Of a DNA stretch of 64,000 nucleotides, positions 10,320-58,361 are shown one piece after another (within the stretch, counting starts at the first letter, position 1; the number at the start of each line of letters is the position of its first letter). The notes under the pieces are model-generated. The model was not told the origin of the DNA. It saw only the letters and a program-made list of their open reading frames with translations, and did not search any database. Source of the DNA: Candidatus Dormiibacterota bacterium (GTDB lineage: Bacteria; Chloroflexota; Dormibacteria; Aeolococcales; Aeolococcaceae); NCBI GenBank assembly GCA_963789735.1, contig CAWBLV010000001.1:213822-277821 (forward strand), in the 5' to 3' direction. The translations under genes and the position numbers were made by a program.

Positions 10320-10469
10320 TGGCTCTCGATCCCACACGCGGACCGGAGGATGGTCCAGAACATCTCGCCGCGAATCTCAACGGCATTCACTTCGCTTGCA
10401 GGCGCTGCAATACTCGCTTTCGGCGAATGAAATCCATCTGAGATCAAAGGGTGACGGTCTGTAACTAGC

Positions 10470-10904
10470 CTACCCCGCGCAGGCCGCGATGGTGAACGTG
10501 CCATGCACGCTCTGCTGATTGTCAGCCTGGAACTGGTAGTGCCACGTGCCGACTTCGGTCAGCGGACCATAGGTGCCACTAGGGTTCACGTTGACGTACA
10601 CGATGGTGGACACACCAGACGGCGACGTGATCGTCAGCTGGTAGTAGACGTTGCCGGCGCCACTCCATGCGATTGCGCCACCGCCAGCGCTACCAACGGG
10701 ATCGCACGCGGTCACACTGATTGTAGGCGTGATCGGTGCGGGCGTCGAGATTGATGTCGCGGTGGGAGTTGCGCTGGGCGTCGGTGCTACTGTCGCACCG
10801 ACAGTCAGCGCGGGAGTTGGGGAAACAGTCGGCGCGAGCGTCGAGCCACACGCCGCGAGGGCAAGGGCGGCGATCGCAGAGCCGATGACGATGGTGACTT
10901 TCAT
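10470..10904 (-). CDS. lipoprotein with Pro/Thr linker, unknown function
   Basis: 144-aa ORF; lipobox LALAACG; PT-rich linker; C-terminal Cys-bracketed beta domain. Confidence 0.65.
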   Translation of the reverse strand: MKVTIVIGSAIAALALAACGSTLAPTVSPTPALTVGATVAPTPSATPTATSISTPAPITPTISVTACDPVGSAGGGAIAWSGAGNVYYQLTITSPSGVSTIVYVNVNPSGTYGPLTEVGTWHYQFQADNQQSVHGTFTIAACAG

Positions 10905-10980
10905 TTCTGCCTCTGTCCACTCAACGCGAACACGTCATAACGGTTACGAGACAGCAATGCGCACCCCTATGTTGTAAGGA

Positions 10981-11475
10981 TTATGTCGGGGCGACTGGAC
11001 TCGAACCAGCGACCCCCTGCTCCCAAACTTCCTTGCGGGTCACGCCGTATTCACCCTGAATTGAACACCACGGGGCGATCGCGCGCAAGCCTCCTGACTC
11101 GCTGGGAGCGGTCAGTTTGAAGTCCGGCTCGGGCTGCTGCCCATAGACCTTTATATCGAATCCTCGAAAGCGAAATGCGTCTCTAATCCGGTCGAGGATC
11201 TTCTGGCGCGCGTGCGCATCGATTTCGTCATCGGCGTGGGGAGGGTCCCAGTGAGTCAGTCGAGCCGGATACATGACCATGGTGAATGGCCCGCCTGCGA
11301 GCACCTCAGAATCGACAACAACCGTCTTGTCCGCCTCCTCATATCGGAGTCCGGCTCGCCCCAACACCTCTACTGAGAAGCCTTCATCGCTCGCGATCAT
11401 GTTTACTCGAGGGATTCGAAACATCTTGCTTGATTCTAGGGTTCGAGCAACGCGACGATCTATCGCCGGGGTCAT
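10981..11475 (-). CDS. hypothetical protein, possibly Imm74-like immunity-type domain; 3' end runs into the tRNA-derived repeat
   Basis: 164-aa ORF; the segment LTHWDPPHADDEIDAHARQKILDRIRDAF recalls Imm74-family proteins (from memory, not searched); the last ~15 codons are encoded by the att repeat. Confidence 0.45.
   Translation of the reverse strand: MTPAIDRRVARTLESSKMFRIPRVNMIASDEGFSVEVLGRAGLRYEEADKTVVVDSEVLAGGPFTMVMYPARLTHWDPPHADDEIDAHARQKILDRIRDAFRFRGFDIKVYGQQPEPDFKLTAPSESGGLRAIAPWCSIQGEYGVTRKEVWEQGVAGSSPVAPT
10985..11027 (-). repeat. partial tRNA-Pro copy (3' half); att-type direct repeat of 16175-16217
   Basis: 43/43 nt identical to the anticodon-loop-to-acceptor segment of the intact tRNA-Pro gene; no 5' half present. 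Confidence 0.9.
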
Positions 11476-11511
11476 CGCGTAGTCGGTCGGTTTGCAAACG
11501 AGTGGGTAGGG

Positions 11512-11736
11512 TCAGTCCGATTTCGCTCGGTAATTCGGGTTCGGACGGAACCTTCCAACGATCTCGCCGTCAGCGGCGATTTGCCACGCCCCGATGATCG
11601 CGGAAGGGGGCACAGCTCCCATGGGGTCGTCGACCTGTGCGCCGTCAATCTCGTAAACCCAACCACCGCCAAGGCGGACAGCCTCCGCGCATTGGGCGGC
11701 AAACTTCGCGTCGTTGGGTGGCTTGCGTTCCTCCAT
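11512..11736 (-). CDS. hypothetical small protein
   Basis: ORF 11512-11772, likely start ATG 11736 (MEERKPPNDAKF...); GGWVYEIDG ... VPPSAIIGAWQI ... NPNY pattern. Confidence 0.4.
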   Translation of the reverse strand: MEERKPPNDAKFAAQCAEAVRLGGGWVYEIDGAQVDDPMGAVPPSAIIGAWQIAADGEIVGRFRPNPNYRAKSD

Positions 11737-11800
11737 CCGCGAAGAATGCGCCGTCGAGATTACCCGTAGCACGCCCTACCGATTTTCAAGTTCGTCCTCT

Positions 11801-11920
11801 GGTTGTTCACGATCACGCGCGAACGGCCGCTGCGTATTCGGTCTTGGGTGTCCGCACAGCCACCGCGTCCGCTGGAAACCGGCGGCGGCCGCAAAATAGG
11901 GTGTCGGATAAGGTGTCAAA
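11801..11920 (+). repeat. island repeat copy A
   Basis: Aligns with copies B-D; ends in GGTGTCG-N5-GGTGTCA (11900/11912). Confidence 0.6.
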
Positions 11921-12124
11921 GCCGACCGTTGCTAGCACTAGGACGGCAACTCGTATGGCCGCCCGTGCAGTCCACTGTGGAAGGTTTGTGAGGTTCAATC
12001 CGCCCCATCGGTCCATGCCTGATGGCGTTGTGAGTTACGGTGGCCCAACGTGAAGAGGTCAGAAGACGGCCACTTCTGTGAAGCGTAGGCCGGCTCATCG
12101 GCTGCGCAACTGGCGGACCGAGGC

Positions 12125-12436
12125 ATGAAGCAGATCGCGCGGGCGTGGAGTTGGAACAGGAAGAGGCTACCTCCGAAGGCGACGAGGCGCTTGAGGGGTC
12201 AGGCAAGGTTTGCCGCCTTCGTATGGACTGGCATCCTATTCGTTGGCGGAGTATTGATGGTCGCCGTCGCGATAGTGGCGGCTGTGACTGGTCAGACACC
12301 TGGGGTCTGGGCAGGTCTCTTGGCGGGCACTGTTTGCTTCGCGGGTTTCGGCAGCCTGTGGAGGATCCGTCGTTGGTGGTGGCCACCCATTCGCGACGAC
12401 GATCTCCCAAGCCGCGACCGCAAACGTCAAGCTTGA
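12125..12436 (+). CDS. hypothetical two-TM membrane protein (island cassette 1)
   Basis: 103-aa ORF; two hydrophobic helices (FAAFVWTGILFVGGVLMVAVAIVAAV, VWAGLLAGTVCFAGFG). Confidence 0.5.
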   Translation: MKQIARAWSWNRKRLPPKATRRLRGQARFAAFVWTGILFVGGVLMVAVAIVAAVTGQTPGVWAGLLAGTVCFAGFGSLWRIRRWWWPPIRDDDLPSRDRKRQA

Positions 12437-12461
12437 GCGGCGCCGCGGCTGCGCTACTTCG

Positions 12462-12605
12462 CTAGCGGTTCTTGAGCCCGCACGATGCGGATTCGTACAG
12501 GTTCCACACCCCTTGCGCTCTCTCGGCTGGGAGCGGCTGCTTGTTCGCCGGTAGCCGTGGGCGACCGCGACTTAGGGTGTCAGCGAGTGTCTGGACCCAG
12601 CTCAT
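12462..12605 (-). CDS. 47-aa small ORF encoded inside repeat copy B (only intact member of the repeat-encoded frame)
   Basis: ATG 12605 to TAG 12462, hand-translated as MSWVQTLADTLSRGRPRLPANKQPLPAERAQGVWNLYESASCGLKNR; below the ORF-track length cutoff; homologous frames in copies A, C and D are broken. Confidence 0.3.
   Translation of the reverse strand: MSWVQTLADTLSRGRPRLPANKQPLPAERAQGVWNLYESASCGLKNR
12466..12600 (+). repeat. island repeat copy B
   Basis: Starts cggttcttgag 30 nt after the preceding stop; ends GGTGTCA-N3-AGTGTCT (12576/12586). Confidence 0.65.
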
Positions 12606-12669
12606 CGTCGGGTCGCACAATGGTCGCGTGGACTCCGACTGGCTACCGCCTGGCGCGTCTCCTCCGGTG

Positions 12670-13089
12670 ATGCCGCTGCAGCTTCCCGCTTACTTGACCC
12701 AACTCAGCGACAGAATCCGACGAGAGGCCATTGATCTACGGCCCCAACAGGTCGCAGCCGTGGGGTTTCACGTGCAGCCGGCGTTAGACGCGGTCGGTGA
12801 GCTCGAAACCCACAGTGTTGCGGTTCTGGGGGCGGATACATGGACAGTGCGTGACGGCGAGCAGCCGAGGGTTTTCCCGTCCCTCGGCTGGGCGGGCGCA
12901 CATTTGGCTGCGCAGGAGGAGTGGCAAGACTATGTGCGCCGAGCCGCCGCATACGCACGCGAACGGATAAAGGGCGCTGATCTGTATGCGCGAGATGGTG
13001 GTTGGGGAACGCTCATCTTCGCGCTCGTGCCTTCTGACCAGCGGCGCTACGAAGAATTGAACCGTGGAGCGTCATCGCGCGACGGTTGA
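12670..13089 (+). CDS. hypothetical protein (island cassette 2)
   Basis: ORF 12472-13089; plausible starts GTG 12628 or ATG 12670; no recognisable motif. Confidence 0.5.
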   Translation: MPLQLPAYLTQLSDRIRREAIDLRPQQVAAVGFHVQPALDAVGELETHSVAVLGADTWTVRDGEQPRVFPSLGWAGAHLAAQEEWQDYVRRAAAYARERIKGADLYARDGGWGTLIFALVPSDQRRYEELNRGASSRDG

Positions 13090-13238
13090 GGCGCGACATC
13101 GCTGCGCCATCAGGCGGCGCTCCAAACGACGTCGCGAATGAGAACTCCTCGGCGTAGGAGTGATGAGCGGGCGCGGGCCTGTGACAATCCAGACTGTTAC
13201 GGCTGAAGCAGGCGGCGTCCCAGCGGCCGCTCCCCCGC

Positions 13239-13385
13239 CGGTTCTTGACGTCGTCCACACCGAGTTCGGCCGTGTCCGTCGGTTCTCGTCGCGCGTGCAA
13301 ACTAGGCATCGGCACCGCGATGATGCGTTCGCGGAGAAGCGGGAGTGACCGCCCAGTACGGCGTCAGACAGGATGTCACCCACGT
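13239..13385 (+). repeat. island repeat copy C
   Basis: Starts cggttcttgac; ends GGCGTCA-N5-GATGTCA (13360/13372). Confidence 0.65.
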
Positions 13386-13469
13386 TCGGCGAGATGATGC
13401 TGCGTGCGGAAGGCGCCTTGCTACCGGCGGGTACAAGGGACGCCCCTCACCCGTCTACCATCATCGCCG

Positions 13470-13985
13470 ATGGACCACCCCGTGCCTTGGGAAGGCGTCG
13501 TCGCTGCATCCATGCCCTGGTTCGTTGAGCGCTTCACGCTTCACAACTCCGGCCTCCAGAGCATCACTGCGGACTGGGAGGGTCGGACTTTGCTGAAGAT
13601 TCACTTCGATCTTCACTGGAATCCATCCGTGCCAGATGGCCATACCACTCTTTGGATTCGGTTCGACCATCCGTATCGGGTCGTCTACACACGGGGTGGT
13701 TGGGGTCAGCCCACGCTTGAGGGCGTGCAGAGCCAGGCGCTCGACAACCAACAGCGCGAAGTGATTCGCGCCGGAACGTCTTTCGACCCTCGCGCATATC
13801 AGCTCCCGGGAACGGAGTTCGGATCCGTGTATCCCCCGGACGACGACGGGCTAACGAGCACGATGTTCTCGTTGATGAACTGGGGGACTCTCGCGTTATT
13901 GCATGCCACACCGGTGCGGTTTGCCGTCGCGAGTTCAGAAACGGCTAGCATCGACGTGACATCCCTGAACGTGCGCCCTCCCTGA
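13470..13985 (+). CDS. hypothetical protein (island cassette 3)
   Basis: ORF 13404-13985, likely ATG 13470 (MDHPVPWEG...); reasonable codon bias; no recognisable motif. Confidence 0.55.
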   Translation: MDHPVPWEGVVAASMPWFVERFTLHNSGLQSITADWEGRTLLKIHFDLHWNPSVPDGHTTLWIRFDHPYRVVYTRGGWGQPTLEGVQSQALDNQQREVIRAGTSFDPRAYQLPGTEFGSVYPPDDDGLTSTMFSLMNWGTLALLHATPVRFAVASSETASIDVTSLNVRPP

Positions 13986-14087
13986 CACTGGAGAGACGAG
14001 GCCAAAGTCGTGGTGGCCTTCACCGGCGGCGATCGCTGTGGCTGAGCAACCACCGACGTCAAGCGGCAGTGGCGGACCCAGCCCGGG

Positions 14088-14232
14088 CGGTTCTTGAGTT
14101 CGCGAACGATGGGTTCGACCGTGTCCGTCTAAGGCCGTGTCGCATTCAAACCACGCGTCGGCACGGCAACTCGGTCCGCCGGGAGCCGGGAGTGTCCGCG
14201 AAATAGGGTGTCAGAGCGGGTGTCATCCACGC
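14088..14232 (+). repeat. island repeat copy D
   Basis: Starts cggttcttgag; contains the 10-bp palindrome GTTCGCGAAC; ends GGTGTCA-N5-GGTGTCA (14207/14219). Confidence 0.65.
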
Positions 14233-14356
14233 CAAGCAGAGGACGACGGTGTGAGCGTGCTGTGCGGTGGGCGCACGCAACTGGCTGACGTTGGGTGCCG
14301 ACATTCGAGGTGTCGAGTAGCGCTTGGTCAGGCGCAGCTATGCTGAGTCCGTGGGC

Positions 14357-15058
14357 ATGCACCTCGGCTTAATGGCTTTCGACTGCAGCTGGGCGAACGC
14401 ACGGGAGGCGATGCAGATCCAATGCGGCCAGTTTGATGACCCTGTGCCGCTTGCTCCGGGCGAGTGGCTCCGATTGCCAACGGGGGTGGACGCCCTCCAT
14501 GTCGCCGAGACTCAGGGACGAACTTACGTCCTGGATCCTGCCATGGTGATAAGCGCTAATCCAGACTTTGTCATGTGGCTGTCTACGCAACTGAAGTGCA
14601 TTGTCGTTGGCGCAGGTGCGGAGACGGTGAGTGGTTCCTTCTGGTTCACGGCGGCCGATCGAGGGGTCCTCAGACGGCTCCACTGGGACGACACCGCGAC
14701 GCTCACGGGGCCATTTGACCTAGGCGATCAACTCGAAAGTGAGGCGAAGAAGCCTCTATCACAGGCGGACGGTGAGGGAATCCGTCCCGCCATCTCGTCC
14801 CTCGGGTTCAACTCTCAGGTCTATCTCAACGCATCTGACAGCTACCGCGTCATGTGGCCCGGCGGAAAGCTCCCGCCTTCCGGAGAACTCGAGGCGCTCG
14901 TGAATAGTCATGTTCAGGCGAGCCGGCGAAAGGACGCCGACGACTGGACAACGCACATCGCGGCCGTTCCCCGCCCTGAGGGCGGCATTGACCTGCGCGT
15001 GCAGCGTCCGGGGCAAGGAGGCCAAGGTTTGATCAAGAGGCTTTTCCGGCGCAGCTAA
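14357..15058 (+). CDS. hypothetical protein (island cassette 4)
   Basis: ORF 14324-15058, ATG 14357 (MHLGLMAFDCSW...) preceded by TATGCT at 14339; no recognisable motif. Confidence 0.55.
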   Translation: MHLGLMAFDCSWANAREAMQIQCGQFDDPVPLAPGEWLRLPTGVDALHVAETQGRTYVLDPAMVISANPDFVMWLSTQLKCIVVGAGAETVSGSFWFTAADRGVLRRLHWDDTATLTGPFDLGDQLESEAKKPLSQADGEGIRPAISSLGFNSQVYLNASDSYRVMWPGGKLPPSGELEALVNSHVQASRRKDADDWTTHIAAVPRPEGGIDLRVQRPGQGGQGLIKRLFRRS

Positions 15059-15394
15059 TTCACCCTCCGACCAAAGTTCGCGGCAGCGCCAGTGAGCGCA
15101 CGCTTCGCAGAGCAGCCATGAGCTACATCACCGCGCCGTGCTGAGGGTAGGCGGCATACAGCCAGATCCGTCGCCGTAAGGCTTGACTTTGTGCGTGGAC
15201 TCGATCCTTTTCGTGACGCAAGAAGGTCGTGCGCACCGGTTGGTGCAACTGTGTGTGATGTGAAGGAGCGATGCCGAGAAAGAAATGCGATGGATGCGGA
15301 GAAAAGATGGAGGGAGAGAAGGCGGATGGAGGCGCTTGGCGATGTGGATGAGGGAGTTTGGCTGCGGAGGCGTGGCCTGGGTGGCTGGCTCGGC

Positions 15395-15429
15395 GGGGTG
15401 TGGGTTCGGAGCGGGCCGACCCACACCCC
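15395..15429 (-). terminator. perfect 11-bp-stem hairpin just downstream of the minus-strand ORF ending at 15448
   Basis: ggggtgtgggt (15395-15405) / acccacacccc (15419-15429), 13-nt loop. Confidence 0.4.
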
Positions 15430-15447
15430 CGCGCCGGCGCGTAGCGG

Positions 15448-16130
15448 CTATCGAGCCATCCCGGGGCCGGGGGACCAACCCAGTCGCTTGGCCCGCTTCC
15501 GCTCCTTTCGCTGCCGGCGCCGGTGGTCCGAGCGTGTCAGGTGCGGGGACGTCAGCAGAACCACCGCGCGCTCGGCGCTTTCCTGTACCGGCGTCCACGG
15601 ACCTCCCGGCGCTTGCACTCGAGCGCACTCCGCGGCTGCAGCGCCTATCGCCCGCCACCCGGCCACGGCCGCGAGCGTCGGGGTGGACGCCCCATGGAGC
15701 ACGTTGAGTCTCTCTGCGGCTGCGTAGGCGCTGTCCCAGCGGCGCAGCGCCCGGCGCTCAGCGGCCTCGCGTACGCGTTCCTCGCGCGCGGTGGCACGAA
15801 CGCCGGCCGGCGTGTCCCGGTGCGTCTCCCAGAAGTCCGCTCCGGAGAGACGGAACTGCCCCCTGGCGTGTGGCCATCGCGGCAGCAACTCGGGTTGGCC
15901 TTGGCGTCGACGCCGGTAGGCAGCAGCCCGACACGCTGGATCGCAGAATCGCGCCGGTCGCCCGCGCGTCGAGCGGGGTGGGACGACGGCCGGCGGTCGC
16001 TTCGAGAACCCTCATGGCGGGTGCCCCCATGGACGGCATTCTGCCGTCGTTGTGGCGGCGAGACCCCGCGAAAGCCCCTGAACTCGGCATTTTCTGCAGA
16101 GCTTCCACGCCGCTCCCTCAGAGACGCCGC
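15448..16130 (-). pseudogene. decayed mobile-element zinc-ribbon-like ORF next to tRNA-Pro
   Basis: Minus frame reads ...LCRKC...(in-frame TGA)...GRPARFCDPACRAAAYRRRRQG... and continues to 15448. No usable start codon sits upstream of the Cys motifs. The CxxC ... FCxxxCRxxAYRRR pattern is common in actinobacterial integrative elements. Confidence 0.3.
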
Positions 16131-16172
16131 GTGAATTCAGCTCGTATTCAAAATGTCGAGGTCAGATTGACG

Positions 16173-16247
16173 TGGTCGGGGCGACTGGACTCGAACCAGC
16201 GACCCCCTGCTCCCAAAGCAGGTGCGCTACCACTGCGCCACGCCCCG
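16173..16247 (-). tRNA. tRNA-Pro (anticodon UGG), CCA encoded
   Basis: Reverse complement CGGGGCG-UG-GCGC-AGUGGUA-GCGC-A-CCUGC-UUUGGGA-GCAGG-GGGUC-GCUGG-UUCGAGU-CCAGU-CGCCCCG-A-CCA folds as a cloverleaf. Confidence 0.95.
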
Positions 16248-16482
16248 ACGGTTTCTGATCTCAGCTACCGCACCTGCTGCCGAAAAGGCGTCCTATAACC
16301 TCGCCTGCTTCGTGCTGGTCGATTCGCTGTCGTCGAGGCCCATTCTGAGGCTTCGGGGAGAATTTGGGCCGGAAGTCATGGTCGGCCCGGCTCGAACCAA
16401 ACCTATTGCCGCAGCGTTCGTCTTAGCTCCCGGCGCCTACTTTTAGGCCACCGGCACGGGAGCGCCTGCAGGATCTCGCGCT

Positions 16483-41641: not shown

Positions 41642-42073
41642 CTACAAGGACGGCTCGCTCCGCGTGCCCTGAACGGTGTACGCGGCGTCACCCGGCGCGC
41701 AGTGCTCTCGCTGATTGATCTCGACCGCTCGGCCGTCGGGGTCCTCGGCGATCGCCCGGCATCCCCACGGGCGCTCTTCGTGTGCCGTCCGGATGCCCGC
41801 ACCGAGGCTCCGCAACGCCTTCACGGCGTCATCCAGCGATTCGACGTAGAAACCGGGAAAGTCGCTGCCGGCACGCCGCCACACGGCAGCGCGGCTCGCC
41901 GTGTCGTCAGGGGCTTGGAAGACAGCGAAGTGAACGCCGTTGAGGTCGGCGGCGAGATGCTCGGGACCGTCTCCGTGGTCTTCCGCTTCGAGTGGGACGC
42001 CGAGGGCGCGATAGAAGGAGGCGGTTCGTACGGCGTCAGCCGCGAACAGCACGATCGAGGACACCTCAACCAT
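41642..42073 (-). CDS. VOC (glyoxalase/bleomycin-resistance) family protein
   Basis: ATG 42073; IVLFAADAVRTASFYRALG start and paired beta-alpha-beta-beta-beta modules. Confidence 0.7.
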   Translation of the reverse strand: MVEVSSIVLFAADAVRTASFYRALGVPLEAEDHGDGPEHLAADLNGVHFAVFQAPDDTASRAAVWRRAGSDFPGFYVESLDDAVKALRSLGAGIRTAHEERPWGCRAIAEDPDGRAVEINQREHCAPGDAAYTVQGTRSEPSL

Positions 42074-56383: not shown

Positions 56384-56428
56384 GACACGCCTCCAAAGTC
56401 GAAGCCGATTGCGAACAAGGAGGACCGT

Positions 56429-56972
56429 ATGCAGAGGGGATCGCAGGTCGATCGCAGAATCGGTCGTGTTGCGCGTTTGGTTCACGCGGGGCGGAGGATG
56501 TGGGTGATGGCAGCACCGAGCGCCGGCGGAGACGAGCGCTCCCTGAGGCTGCCCGAGGTCGCCATCGATGCATTGATGCGCACGCAGCGCCGGGGCGAGC
56601 TGGTCTGGCCGGGATCCGGGGGCGACCCCATGCCAGCCTCATCGTTCTGCACGCGCTGGGCGGCGATGCGGCGGCGAGCCGGCATCCGCCCGGTCAATTT
56701 CCATGCCTTGCGGCACACAGCGGCGACGCTCGCCCTCGAGGACGGCATCTCGCCGCACGTCGTGGCCGCGATGCTCGGGCACGCTTCGGTCGCCACCACG
56801 CTTGGGGTGTATGCGCACGTCACCCATGTCAGTCTTGACGCGCTGACGCAGGCGATCAATTCCCGCCACCACGTCCGTGACGATGTCCGGGTCATCAGCG
56901 GCGAGACAACGCCACGTGATGAGGGTACGAATGAGGGTACGGAGCTGAAACCTCGTTTTCCGTCAACGGGAA
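56429..56972 (+). pseudogene. tyrosine recombinase/integrase, C-terminal catalytic fragment only
   Basis: HALRHTAATLAL (HxxR) and LGHASVATTLGVYAHV (His..Tyr) are present. The N-terminal SAM-like domain and first catalytic Arg are absent. The reading frame runs on into the IS. Confidence 0.75.
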
Positions 56973-56989
56973 AAGAGTGCCGAGAAAGG

Positions 56990-58272
56990 TGTCGTGTTTC
57001 ACGACATATTGGACGGATGTCTCAAGACATAGTGGACACCCACGTTTGGCGGGGGTGTCGCTATGGCTCTGGGGCGCTATGTGGTGGACGCGGTGCTGTT
57101 CGGTGGGCGCAGCCCCACTGAACTCGCTCGCTCGCACGGGATCTCACGAAGCCGGATCTATCAGCTGATCGCCCGCTATCGGGAAGGTGGCTATGAAGCC
57201 CTCGAGCCTCGCTCACGACGACCTCGATCGTGCTCCCGCGCAGCCGCGCCGGAGATCCAGAACGCGATCGTCCGCCTGCGTCAGGAGCTCGCCGACGCCG
57301 GCCATGACTGCGGGCCACACACCATCGCTCACCACCTCTGCCTCGAGCTCGGCACGGCGCCCTCGGTGGCCACCATCTGGCGCATCCTCGCTCGTCATGG
57401 CCTGATCACTCCGGAGCCGCGCAAGCGGCCGAAGTCGTCCTTCATCCGCTTCGAGGCCGATCTGCCCAACGAGCTCTGGCAGACCGACAGCACCCACTGG
57501 CAGCTCGCCGATGGCACCGGCGTCGAGATCCTCAACTGCCTCGACGACCACTCCCGACTGCTCGTGGTCTCCGACGCCTTCGTCACCATCAAGGCCGCGG
57601 ACGTCGTCGAAAGCCTTTACACCGCCTGGGAGATCTGTGGCTACCCCGCCGCCCTCCTGAGCGACAACGGGGCTGTCTTCAGTGGCAAGACGCGCAAAGG
57701 CAAGGTGCTCCTCGAGTCCGAACTGGAGCGACTCGGCATCGTCGCCAAACACTCCACGCCGTATCACCCGCAGACCTGCGGCAAGGTCGAACGCTTCCAT
57801 CAGACCCAGAAGAAGTTCCTCGACAAGCAGGCGCCGGCATCGACCGTGGCCGTCCTCCAGGCACAACTCGACGCATTCCGCACTTACTACAACCAGCACC
57901 GCCCCCATCGCGCCCTCGACGGCGAAACCCCTCTGCACGCCTATCACGCCCGCATCAAGGCCGCTCCCACCGCCGCACCACCACCCATCCACTACCGCGT
58001 GCGCCACGACCGCGTCGACAAGTCAGGCCGGGTCACGGTGCGCTACCTCAGCCGGCTCCATCACATCGGCATCGGCTGCGCGTACAAGCACCAGCCCATC
58101 ACGCTGCTGATCGCTAACAAAGACATCCGCGTCCTGGCCGAGGACGGCTCGCTGCTCCGTCAACTCACCCTCGACCCACGACGCGACTATCAGCCCCGAG
58201 GAGTGCGCCCTGGCCGCCTTAAACTGTCCACGATGTCGTGAGACATGTGTCCACGATGTCTTGCGACATCAC
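56990..58272 (+). mobile_element. IS481-family insertion sequence, copy 2
   Basis: Same element offset by 2771 bp; the only difference I found is A/G at 54959/57730 (Gln/Arg); flanked by the same 17-bp repeat (56973-56989 and 58273-58289). Confidence 0.9.
57063..58241 (+). CDS. IS481-family DDE transposase
   Basis: 392 aa, one residue different from copy 1. Confidence 0.95.
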   Translation: MALGRYVVDAVLFGGRSPTELARSHGISRSRIYQLIARYREGGYEALEPRSRRPRSCSRAAAPEIQNAIVRLRQELADAGHDCGPHTIAHHLCLELGTAPSVATIWRILARHGLITPEPRKRPKSSFIRFEADLPNELWQTDSTHWQLADGTGVEILNCLDDHSRLLVVSDAFVTIKAADVVESLYTAWEICGYPAALLSDNGAVFSGKTRKGKVLLESELERLGIVAKHSTPYHPQTCGKVERFHQTQKKFLDKQAPASTVAVLQAQLDAFRTYYNQHRPHRALDGETPLHAYHARIKAAPTAAPPPIHYRVRHDRVDKSGRVTVRYLSRLHHIGIGCAYKHQPITLLIANKDIRVLAEDGSLLRQLTLDPRRDYQPRGVRPGRLKLSTMS

Positions 58273-58277
58273 AAGAG

Positions 58278-58361
58278 TGCCGAGAAAGGGAATCGAACCC
58301 TTACGCCCTTACGAGCACAGCGCCCTGAACGCTGCGTGTCTACCAGTTCCACCACCTCGGC
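58278..58361 (-). tRNA. tRNA-Leu (anticodon CAG), long variable arm, CCA not encoded
   Basis: Reverse complement GCCGAGG-UG-GUGGAACUGGUAGACAC-G-CAGCG-UUCAGGG-CGCUG-UGCUCGUAAGGGCGU-AAGGG-UUCGAUU-CCCUU-UCUCGGC-A. Confidence 0.9.

Follow-up and report, generated by a model that had tools for sequence, protein, structure and literature searches.

We describe a repeat of ~150 nucleotides (nt), here called REP, which occurs four times in a 64,000-nt stretch of a Candidatus Dormiibacterota bacterium (assembly GCA_963789735.1, contig CAWBLV010000001.1), referred to as the window. All four copies (A to D) are on the plus strand, each 5' of a different plus-strand open reading frame (ORF), and one REP with its payload ORF is termed a cassette. 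Our favoured explanation, which we regard as probable, is that REPs are half attachment sites of Dormibacterota elements that integrate into tRNA genes, that they enable an integron-like exchange of cassettes, and that the island in the window is a decayed example. Its two parts differ in strength. We have high confidence that REPs originated as part of an attachment site, and about even confidence that cassettes are actively exchanged at its core.

Each REP is composed of a 16-17-nt core and an arm of ~130 nt, distal to the integrase in complete elements, which ends in two GGTGTCA units (heptads) 10-12 nt apart. The core is an antisense copy of the anticodon stem-loop of the target tRNA, this being tRNA-Ser(UGA) in copy A and tRNA-Leu(CAA) in copies B to D. 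Two types of start are found among all REPs collected. The first, GCGGTTTTCAAG, is present in 73 copies, including window A, and equals the antisense anticodon arm of tRNA-Ser(UGA). The second, GCGGTTCTTGAG, is present in 74, including window B-D, and equals that of a tRNA-Leu(CAA) gene; this origin was predicted from the core, and is borne out by a gene with exactly that arm in loci L021 and L025. Furthermore, 57-61 nt from the 3' part of tRNA-Leu(CAA) are located directly 5' of type-2 REPs in at least 12 loci. Ser-like and Leu-like core loops differ at 3 of the 7 loop positions. As a side observation, the tRNA-Leu(CAA) genes reported by ARAGORN (L021 2381-2466, L025 602-688) have an unusual T-arm region (…GCGTTCGAGTAACGGGAC…), because of which a standard GGTTCGAATCC-type pattern misses their fragments.

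Complete elements follow one order: tRNA gene, tyrosine integrase, excisionase, a backbone protein of ~200 amino acids (aa), cargo, REP and displaced tRNA fragment, with the cargo region split by further REPs in the same orientation. In L018, a complete element lies between two copies of a 51-nt repeat, which is the 3' part of tRNA-Ser from the anticodon arm. It contains a heptad pair, a phage-type tyrosine integrase, an excisionase of the HTH_17/TIGR01764 type, the backbone gene, two REPs and three small ORFs. The outer REP passes unbroken into the 51-nt repeat at the distal end. L037 has an intact tRNA-Ser(UGA), after which come the integrase, the excisionase, the backbone gene and two REPs, the last one overlapping a 106-nt repeat of the tRNA region. 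As these loci show, the REP represents the integrase-distal arm together with the first 16 core nucleotides. It is not an orphan motif, and the suggestion of a recombination module, made in the initial annotation of the window, gains support. That annotation also saw no integrase, which is right for the window island and wrong for the system, as complete relatives encode a phage-type tyrosine integrase and an excisionase. The integrase is present in L018, L037 and L015; in L018 (7043-8089) its top match is the phage integrase phrog_1 (E 4.4e-69).

In L018 and L037, GGTGTC pairs with units 11-12 nt apart, as in the REPs, are also located on the integrase-proximal arm, where they separate the core from the integrase gene. 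Both arms of the attachment site in these two loci thus carry short direct repeats distinct from the core, as arm-type sites do. A cluster of three heptad units is likewise found between tRNA-Tyr and a second class of integrase in L011, L042 and L119. By analogy with phage attachment sites, we read the GGTGTCA units as arm-type binding sites for the tyrosine integrase of the element. The attP of tRNA-integrating mycobacteriophages has a 44-bp core that starts from the anticodon loop and is flanked by pairs of direct repeats (PMC3706429), and anticodon-centred attP sites are the commonest class among islands in tRNA genes (PMC4383910).

Some further observations concern the element family. The backbone protein (197-202 aa) carries an N-terminal CxxC...RFCxxACRAAAYRRRRQ motif and belongs to a narrow family of 34 clusters; complete gene copies are found in L013 (158-751) and L018 (8617-9207). 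It has no match in Pfam or NCBIfam, its PDB sequence search gave nothing usable, and its weak PHROG matches cover only an N-terminal zinc-ribbon-like stretch. Wherever the contig reaches far enough, its gene adjoins the excisionase, the integrase or both. In L064 (12033-12173) and L014 (9636-9747), an inverted REP is located beside the excisionase, at the position of the integrase in L018, and the L014 copy is joined directly to the 5' half of tRNA-Tyr. The second integrase class (46-48% identical) of L011, L042 and L119 is at the far end of the array, beside tRNA-Tyr. Taken together, these layouts mean at least two architectures in the family. Lastly, L015/L016 (6396-9003) hold a minimal tRNA-Pro element with an integrase and a 55% identical backbone protein, and a second partial attachment region ~2.5 kb away, beside a complete type I restriction-modification system.

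In terms of mechanism, the integrase would exchange strands at the anticodon-loop core, so that units of one REP and its payload could be joined, excised and swapped between arrays. The outcome would be island accretion shrunk to single-gene cassettes that are mobilisable in cis, integron-like in the way it works. What the sequences show is the homology of REPs to attachment-site arms, the tRNA origin of the core, heptads on both arms, variable arrays, precise junctions and the loss of the integrase from the window island; that the integrase binds the heptads and exchanges strands at the core, and that single cassettes move, is what we infer.

The four window copies are well defined. In a four-way alignment the mean column identity is 66%, with 49 invariant columns, and a repeat search groups them as a single family over 48 nt, with identities of 63-77%. 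Turned into a profile, the four copies recover only themselves in the 64 kb (next match E = 3.5). To avoid circularity, a second profile was built from 106 unique copies, all from loci outside the window; it finds exactly these four REPs, with the next match at E 0.05. The four copies are about where the initial annotation placed them. Copy A begins at ~11779 rather than 11801. The start motif proposed, GCGGTTCTTGAG, is that of B-D, and A has its own version, CCGATTTTCAAGTTCG. As for the terminal GGTGTCA pair, the positions are right in all four copies and the perfect sequence is found only in D, with A, B and C deviating (Table 1). Of all parts of the REP, the first heptad (GGGTGTC) is conserved best, as seen from 113 unique copies.

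An additional motif of 25-30 nt is located directly 3' of the second heptad in many REPs, with a consensus of about CGGCTCAAGGCAGATGAGGCTCGCGTG. Examples are found at 13385-13410 of the window, in L009, L010, L013, L017 and in metagenome loci, with both core types, and copy C keeps a weak form of it as far as ~13410. The AGATGAG part is present in 19 of 109 unique tails, and degenerate versions seen by eye add more. The position of this motif is that of the second class of homology breakpoints described below.

A degenerate 41-nt pattern searched against the genomes of 185,579 species gave five loci, one per genome, all in metagenome-assembled genomes (MAGs) of Candidatus Dormibacterota. A second pattern gave 100 metagenome loci, 79 of which contain a REP according to the profile. 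The total is 157 REP copies in 88 loci, and every named source is a Dormibacterota MAG. Arrays have 1 to 9 REPs at a median spacing of 1.4 kb, and orientation is uniform except in one locus. A genome-wide search with the repeat consensus had been proposed with the initial annotation, and the further copies do form co-oriented arrays with variable payloads. A given payload can have different neighbours from one array to the next.

Most REPs lack the rest of the tRNA. Using alignment, long and short forms were counted among the 143 copies with enough upstream sequence: the tRNA 3' part is present upstream of 41 (23 Ser, 15 Leu, 3 unclear) and absent from 102, and the alignment scores are bimodal. 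Short forms account for ~70% of REPs, including all four in the window; upstream of copy A, for example, no tRNA 3' part was found. In 76 unique short forms the similarity ends exactly at the edge of the anticodon stem, and the 10 nt that adjoin the copy of the anticodon arm resemble tRNA no more than a control window does. The conservation profile accordingly shows an abrupt rise at the first base of the arm copy. Junctions of such precision make random deletion unlikely and favour a site-specific event at the anticodon stem-loop. This is the expected core of such integrases, and the junction sequences argue for site-specific exchange there.

The limits of shared sequence between arrays fall into two classes. 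In the first, homology blocks end within the REP: 8 begin at REP coordinates 3-7 and 9 end at 15-42. As judged from these alignments, such core-to-core units fit an exchange at the core. In the second, at the inner REP edge, 8 blocks end at 145-173 and 7 begin at 166-190.

These data can also be read as fossil accretion, with the arrays being the remains of serial integrations of whole elements at tRNA-Ser and tRNA-Leu, the backbones of which were later lost. REPs would then be inert scars, and payloads would have been reshuffled by ordinary homologous recombination from scar to scar. Accretion in tandem that leaves remnants without an integrase has been well described (PMC5704250, PMC3146451), and several observations speak for this reading or against active cassette exchange. 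A full displaced tRNA fragment is present on 29% of REPs, as in classical attR scars, and a long-form REP is found inside the L079 array. Half of the mapped breakpoints are at the inner REP edge and not at the core; core exchange does not predict them, and payload replacement or homologous recombination may lie behind them. Three closely related genomes (98.5% identical; L001 and L002 among them) have the window array unchanged, with the same four cassettes in the same order, and L001 and L002 are uninformative about variation. The island has no integrase, so its cassettes need not be mobile now, or have been so recently. Binding of the heptads and the position of the crossover are argued by analogy, and ORF calls in the other arrays are heuristic. 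Cassette exchange also accounts neither for the first origin of the short form, a core without the tRNA 3' part, nor for the route by which Ser and Leu REPs arrived in a tRNA-Pro island.

Random deletion, however, predicts tRNA remnants of all lengths, which is at odds with the bimodal scores and with 76 short forms ending at one base. Core, arm and heptads are conserved in internal copies, where the first heptad is near 2 bits per position. Moreover, 17 breakpoints are clustered in the 16-nt core, and 16 nt is short for RecA-dependent exchange. We therefore consider fossil accretion unlikely as a full explanation, and retain cassette exchange at half attachment sites as the preferred one.

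The REP could instead be mainly a promoter or operator that gives co-regulated transcription of the cassettes, the GGTGTCA pair being the operator of a shared regulator. All four window ORFs are on the same strand as their REP, 55-210 nt downstream, and attachment-site arms frequently overlap promoters. TAGGGT, which overlaps the first heptad, fits TANNNT, the -10 pattern of high-G+C Gram-positive bacteria. Nevertheless, a consensus scan of 10900-16300 found no sigma-70-like promoter (0.8 expected by chance), conservation is lower for the TA of TAGGGT than for GGGTGTC, and there is no conserved -35 element. In 65 complete cassettes elsewhere, ORFs are on both strands (63 plus vs 49 minus, by heuristic calls), and gene calls in L013 give four cassettes with genes facing the REP. 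At the ends of elements, moreover, REPs continue into tRNA fragments, and heptads are found again next to integrase genes. The earlier idea that each cassette carries its own promoter or operator is thus unsupported, given the missing sigma-70-like promoter and the ORFs on both strands in other arrays. As the main role of the REP we find regulation quite improbable; promoter activity may be a secondary one.

A true integron, a mobile repeat resembling a miniature inverted-repeat transposable element (MITE), a structured RNA or a small peptide gene were considered as a last group, and we give it hardly any credence. The head-to-tail layout of repeat and ORF does recall integron cassettes, and minus-strand ORFs of 47-103 aa overlap every REP copy. 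Against an integron stand the integrase scores: the L018 protein reaches 45.3 bits with the integron-integrase model TIGR02249 (cut-off 265) and 37.8 bits with NF011946 (cut-off 435). The REP is not an imperfect palindrome, folds weakly, has no Rfam match and is not scattered. An attC-type site was rejected, as consensus folds are weak, the repeat is 5' of the payload, and the sole palindromic part is the 16-nt copy of the anticodon arm; the annotation had likewise seen no such site. A structured RNA was rejected with RNAalifold consensus energies for the four copies of -9.3 and -5.8 kcal/mol on the two strands over ~148 columns, and at E <= 10 Rfam reports only the tRNA and its fragment. A small protein or peptide was rejected because the overlapping frames are not kept between copies, being lost through indels of 2 and 9 nt.

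A dispersed repeat of the MITE or REP type was rejected too: there is no fifth copy in the 64 kb, and the genomes of 185,579 species gave only one locus in each of five genomes. On longer contigs, REPs are in co-oriented arrays, often with an integrase, an excisionase or the backbone module on the same contig. The initial annotation had allowed that the repeat might be a generic genome-wide MITE, or the array strictly invariant in synteny. The first is contradicted by the single locus per genome, and the second by the cassette number and content, which vary among relatives.

As for the island itself (Table 1), the claim that it is bounded by a tRNA is confirmed, as its two ends are perfect direct repeats of 43 nt that correspond to the 3' part of tRNA-Pro(UGG). 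An intact tRNA-Pro(UGG) and a displaced fragment in direct orientation are the ends that Islander looks for. The fragment and the next 73 nt are 91-95% identical to related island ends in L017, L053, L008 and L101, and in L008 these 116 nt follow an additional REP and have an internal deletion in the tRNA-Pro fragment.

At the other end, directly 3' of the array, window 15207-15966 shares 84-88% identity with the equivalent region of other loci. The backbone gene shows third-position periodicity of substitutions, and its homology to complete copies stops at ~15966-15984. Window 15996-16218 shares 88% identity with the sequence just 5' of a complete integrase gene in L015/L016. Furthermore, window 15969-16177 matches L017 1-211 (92%) and window 15902-15976 matches L017 1648-1722. 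The window is therefore without 1.4 kb (L017 212-1647) that in L017 holds an integrase fragment. The family integrase, a gene of the kind that Islander also expects inside an island, gave no tblastn match in 10985-16247. These sequence comparisons identify the window island as a decayed member of the family, of tRNA-Pro type, with the integrase, the excisionase and the 5' end of the backbone gene deleted. With both genes gone, its four cassettes are presumably fixed now, barring an integrase elsewhere in the genome. Its ends are of tRNA-Pro type without an adjoining REP, so the Ser and Leu REPs belong to sister elements.

The non-coding block beside the backbone gene stands out as well. It is 80-92% identical in 10 other loci (L013, L017, L018, L037, L047, L064, L068, L098, L111, L011), has a sharp outer edge at TTTCGTGACGCAAGAAGG and contains several GATGGA/GATGTG-like repeats. 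This block of 240 nt, 3' of the backbone gene, is conserved no less than the coding region beside it. Rfam has no match for the block, which might be an origin, a cluster of binding sites or an RNA.

Table 1. Features of the tRNA-Pro island, in window coordinates.
Feature	Position	Strand	Remarks
Imm74-family immunity gene	10981-11475	-	Pfam PF15603, E 4.9e-9, 36.6 bits vs cut-off 27.1
Displaced tRNA-Pro 3' fragment, 43 nt	10985-11027	-	distal island boundary (attR-type); perfect direct repeat of 16175-16217
86-aa ORF between Imm74 gene and REP A	11512-11772	-	partial match to NF033532, type VII secretion-associated
REP copy A	11779-11918	+	short form, Ser type; independent profile E 2.9e-30
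REP A core CCGATTTTCAAGTTCG	11779-11794	+	equals antisense anticodon arm of tRNA-Ser(UGA)
REP A heptads	11900-11906, 11912-11918	+	first unit GGTGTCG
Cassette A payload, 103-aa predicted membrane protein	12125-12436	+	from ORF list
REP copy B	12465-12592	+	short form, Leu type; independent profile E 5e-10
REP B core GCGGTTCTTGAGCCCG	12465-12480	+	equals antisense anticodon arm of tRNA-Leu(CAA)
REP B heptads	12576-12582, 12586-12592	+	second unit degenerate, AGTGTCT
Cassette B payload, 139 aa	12670-13089	+	exact match in public protein cluster, 20 members
REP copy C	13238-13378	+	short form, Leu type; independent profile E 3.2e-28, alignment reaching 13402
REP C core CCGGTTCTTGACGTCG	13238-13253	+	
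REP C heptads	13360-13366, 13372-13378	+	both degenerate, GGCGTCA and GATGTCA
Cassette C payload, 171 aa	13470-13985	+	exact match in public protein cluster, 14 members
REP copy D	14087-14225	+	short form, Leu type; independent profile E 2e-37
REP D core GCGGTTCTTGAGTTCG	14087-14102	+	
REP D heptads	14207-14213, 14219-14225	+	sole window copy with a perfect pair
Cassette D payload, 233 aa	14357-15058	+	exact match in public protein cluster, 2 members
Conserved non-coding backbone block	15207-15447		purine-rich on plus strand; no codon periodicity of substitutions
Backbone ('anchor') gene, 5'-truncated	15448-15984	-	tblastn, 84% identity to residues 20-197 of complete protein
Integrase-proximal arm of tRNA-Pro attachment site	15996-16172		integrase and excisionase genes deleted here
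Intact tRNA-Pro(UGG), integration target	16173-16247	-	ARAGORN and Rfam, 68.8 bits; proximal repeat copy 16175-16217

The four payload ORFs are mutually unrelated, as the initial annotation had stated, and none has a Pfam match. They also have no match in PHROGs or NCBIfam. ORF A has only a sub-threshold Pfam hit (DUF6350) and, with its start at 12125, no counterpart in the public protein collection. ORF B is possibly Imm40-like: all three of its homologues are flagged as Imm40 (PF15569) in a precomputed table, which our own hmmscan (E <= 10) did not reproduce; a 64% identical homologue is also located downstream of a REP, in L121. ORF C has homologues in four clusters only (48-58% identical). 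One of them, at 56% identity and with no REP, adjoins a 2073-aa RHS-repeat protein as well as an Imm33-like and a DUF6984 gene, and from this neighbourhood ORF C is probably an immunity protein. The option that the repeat is tied to one particular ORF was ruled out, as the 48-58% identical homologues of ORF C have no upstream REP; the REP is thus a property of the array and not of the gene. ORF D has no match in PDB either, and the PDB sequence search of ORF C gave nothing usable. AlphaFold2 models are of low confidence (pLDDT 44.7 for ORF B and 49.5 for ORF C).

The Imm74-like call for the neighbouring gene was also correct, being above the Pfam cut-off. The 3' end of this gene extends into the tRNA-Pro fragment, and a 92% identical copy is directly 3' of a REP in L008. 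The adjacent 86-aa ORF matches NCBIfam NF033532 at E 1.2e-10 and 41.7 bits, below the cut-off of 85, and this partial similarity fits a theme of inter-bacterial conflict at that end of the island. No toxin gene is present in the window island, according to the ORF list and Pfam, in line with what had been noted before. Overall, the window cargo leans towards immunity proteins against inter-bacterial toxins.

A different picture emerges from the other arrays. A Pfam scan of 83 candidate cassette ORFs found 4 ECF sigma factors, 2 pairs of ABC transporter and FtsX, 2 GNAT acetyltransferases and a single immunity protein (WapI-like). A HAD hydrolase, a methyltransferase and a replication-associated protein were among the remaining matches. 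With such mixed cargo, the arrays are general stores of accessory genes rather than dedicated polyimmunity loci. The earlier proposal of polyimmunity therefore applies loosely to this window and not to the arrays as a whole, where the cargo is generic with occasional immunity proteins.

Elsewhere in the window, a second decayed island was found at 56400-58361, at tRNA-Leu(CAG) (58277-58361, minus strand). Of a tyrosine integrase, it retains a C-terminal fragment (~56495-56824) that shares 37% identity with the integrase of L018, and beside this fragment is an ORF (~57063-58240) that by eye looks like an rve-type insertion sequence transposase. Furthermore, a 53-nt stretch at 10344-10396, just outside the tRNA-Pro island, is 85% identical, inverted, to 41924-41975, 31 kb away.

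A broader idea, which we offer as possible rather than probable, is that Dormibacterota carry a second, independently evolved cassette system, in which a heterobivalent integrase and an excisionase capture, excise and reshuffle single-gene cassettes. Its platform would be a small tRNA-integrated element and its portable site the ~150-nt short-form half attachment site, in which a mimic of the tRNA anticodon stem-loop would act as the core, next to an arm with two arm-type sites. Ser-like and Leu-like cores would be incompatible exchange groups, and the whole would be an integron analogue made from lambda-type rather than IntI-type parts.

Dormibacterota are abundant in soil and permafrost, and are known mostly through MAGs. 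If cassette exchange is true, it would be a first handle on horizontal gene flow in this phylum, and a route to integron-like shuffling that has not been described for heterobivalent integrases. If short-form REPs are active, ordinary tRNA-targeting integrases would be convertible to cassette-capture machines. The junctions at the 16-nt anticodon arm give a core site and crossover region that are directly testable, and the heptads a testable arm site. The REP profile is also a sensitive marker for variable accessory-gene arrays in Dormibacterota metagenomes, which in this genome include orphan immunity genes. Even if REPs are only scars, the arrays would be a clear and well-documented case of extreme island accretion and decay.

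Among known systems, the REP arrays are first compared with accretion of cis-mobilisable elements (CIMEs), exemplified by ICESt1/CIME of Streptococcus thermophilus and the ssrA-specific islands of Dehalococcoides (PMC5704250, PMC3146451). Shared features are integrase-less units, located downstream of a tRNA or tmRNA gene and with repeated attachment-site sequence as their boundaries, a single integrase module beside the intact target gene, and a number of units that varies between strains. By analogy, the units would in principle be mobilisable in cis. As in a CIME, payload-only units are flanked by homologues of the attachment site, here mostly short forms without the tRNA 3' part. The REP units differ in their very small size, with a median of 1.4 kb and frequently a single gene, and as many as 9 of them follow one another. 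Their boundary is an anticodon-stem-loop core plus a 130-nt arm with arm-type sites and not a displaced tRNA fragment; ~70% of boundaries lack such a fragment, with a base-precise junction. Ser and Leu boundaries are also mixed in one array, inside an island bounded by tRNA-Pro. In the Islander collection, 4 tandem arrays of at least 3 islands were counted among 3919 islands, a count that requires an integrase per island (PMC4383910).

Integrons share with the REP arrays the head-to-tail order of small, mostly single-gene cassettes, each with its own recombination site, as well as diverse accessory cargo and variation between relatives. A tyrosine recombinase accompanies the array in complete elements. 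It is, however, a phage-type, heterobivalent-looking integrase with an excisionase and not IntI, and the site is a tRNA-anticodon-arm core with a direct-repeat arm, in contrast to the folded single-stranded attC palindrome. The REP is upstream of the payload, the platform is itself an excisable tRNA-integrated island, and no equivalent of attI or Pc was identified in the arrays. As both the integrase and the site tests fail, the REP array is not an integron.

The rAID-1 loci of Bacteroidales are arrays of orphan immunity genes with repetitive intergenic sequences 'reminiscent of integrons', beside a tyrosine recombinase of the XerD family that is more than 50% identical within the family and restricted to Bacteroidales (10.1101/471110). 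The window cargo, with Imm74 and a probable RHS-linked immunity protein, fits this orphan-immunity theme. The differences are the phylum, the recombinase class (XerD-like in rAID-1), the repeat sequence, the tracing of the REP to a tRNA attachment site, and the array cargo, which in Dormibacterota is not mainly immunity genes. No recombinase is present in the window island, and the integrase of its relatives reaches only 70 bits with the XerD model (cut-off 330).

The attP sites of phages with heterobivalent integrases, such as lambda, L5-type and Cluster J mycobacteriophages (PMC3706429), resemble the complete elements in a core from the anticodon loop to the tRNA 3' end, in the integrase gene beside one arm, and in short imperfect direct-repeat pairs about one helical turn apart on both flanks (arm-type sites). 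A phage genome has one attP, whereas the REP is a distal half-site that is multiplied, each copy followed by a different payload. Heterogeneous polyimmunity loci place unrelated, toxin-less immunity genes side by side, vary between strains and are sometimes near recombinases, and Imm74 is listed as occurring in them (Zhang et al. 2012, PMC3482391). The window island likewise has unrelated genes side by side without a toxin gene, among them Imm74 and the putative immunity genes ORF B and ORF C. Only 1 of its 6 island ORFs passes a Pfam threshold for an immunity family, however, and its genes are not packed as an operon, being separated by spacers of 350-420 nt with a recombination module.

Site-specific accretion of islands with integrase-less, cis-mobilisable remnants is thus already known, as are integron-like immunity arrays beside recombinases. 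What appears to be new is the miniaturised unit, its boundary of an anticodon-arm core plus arm, mostly base-precise and without a tRNA fragment, the mixed core types within an array, and the phylum.

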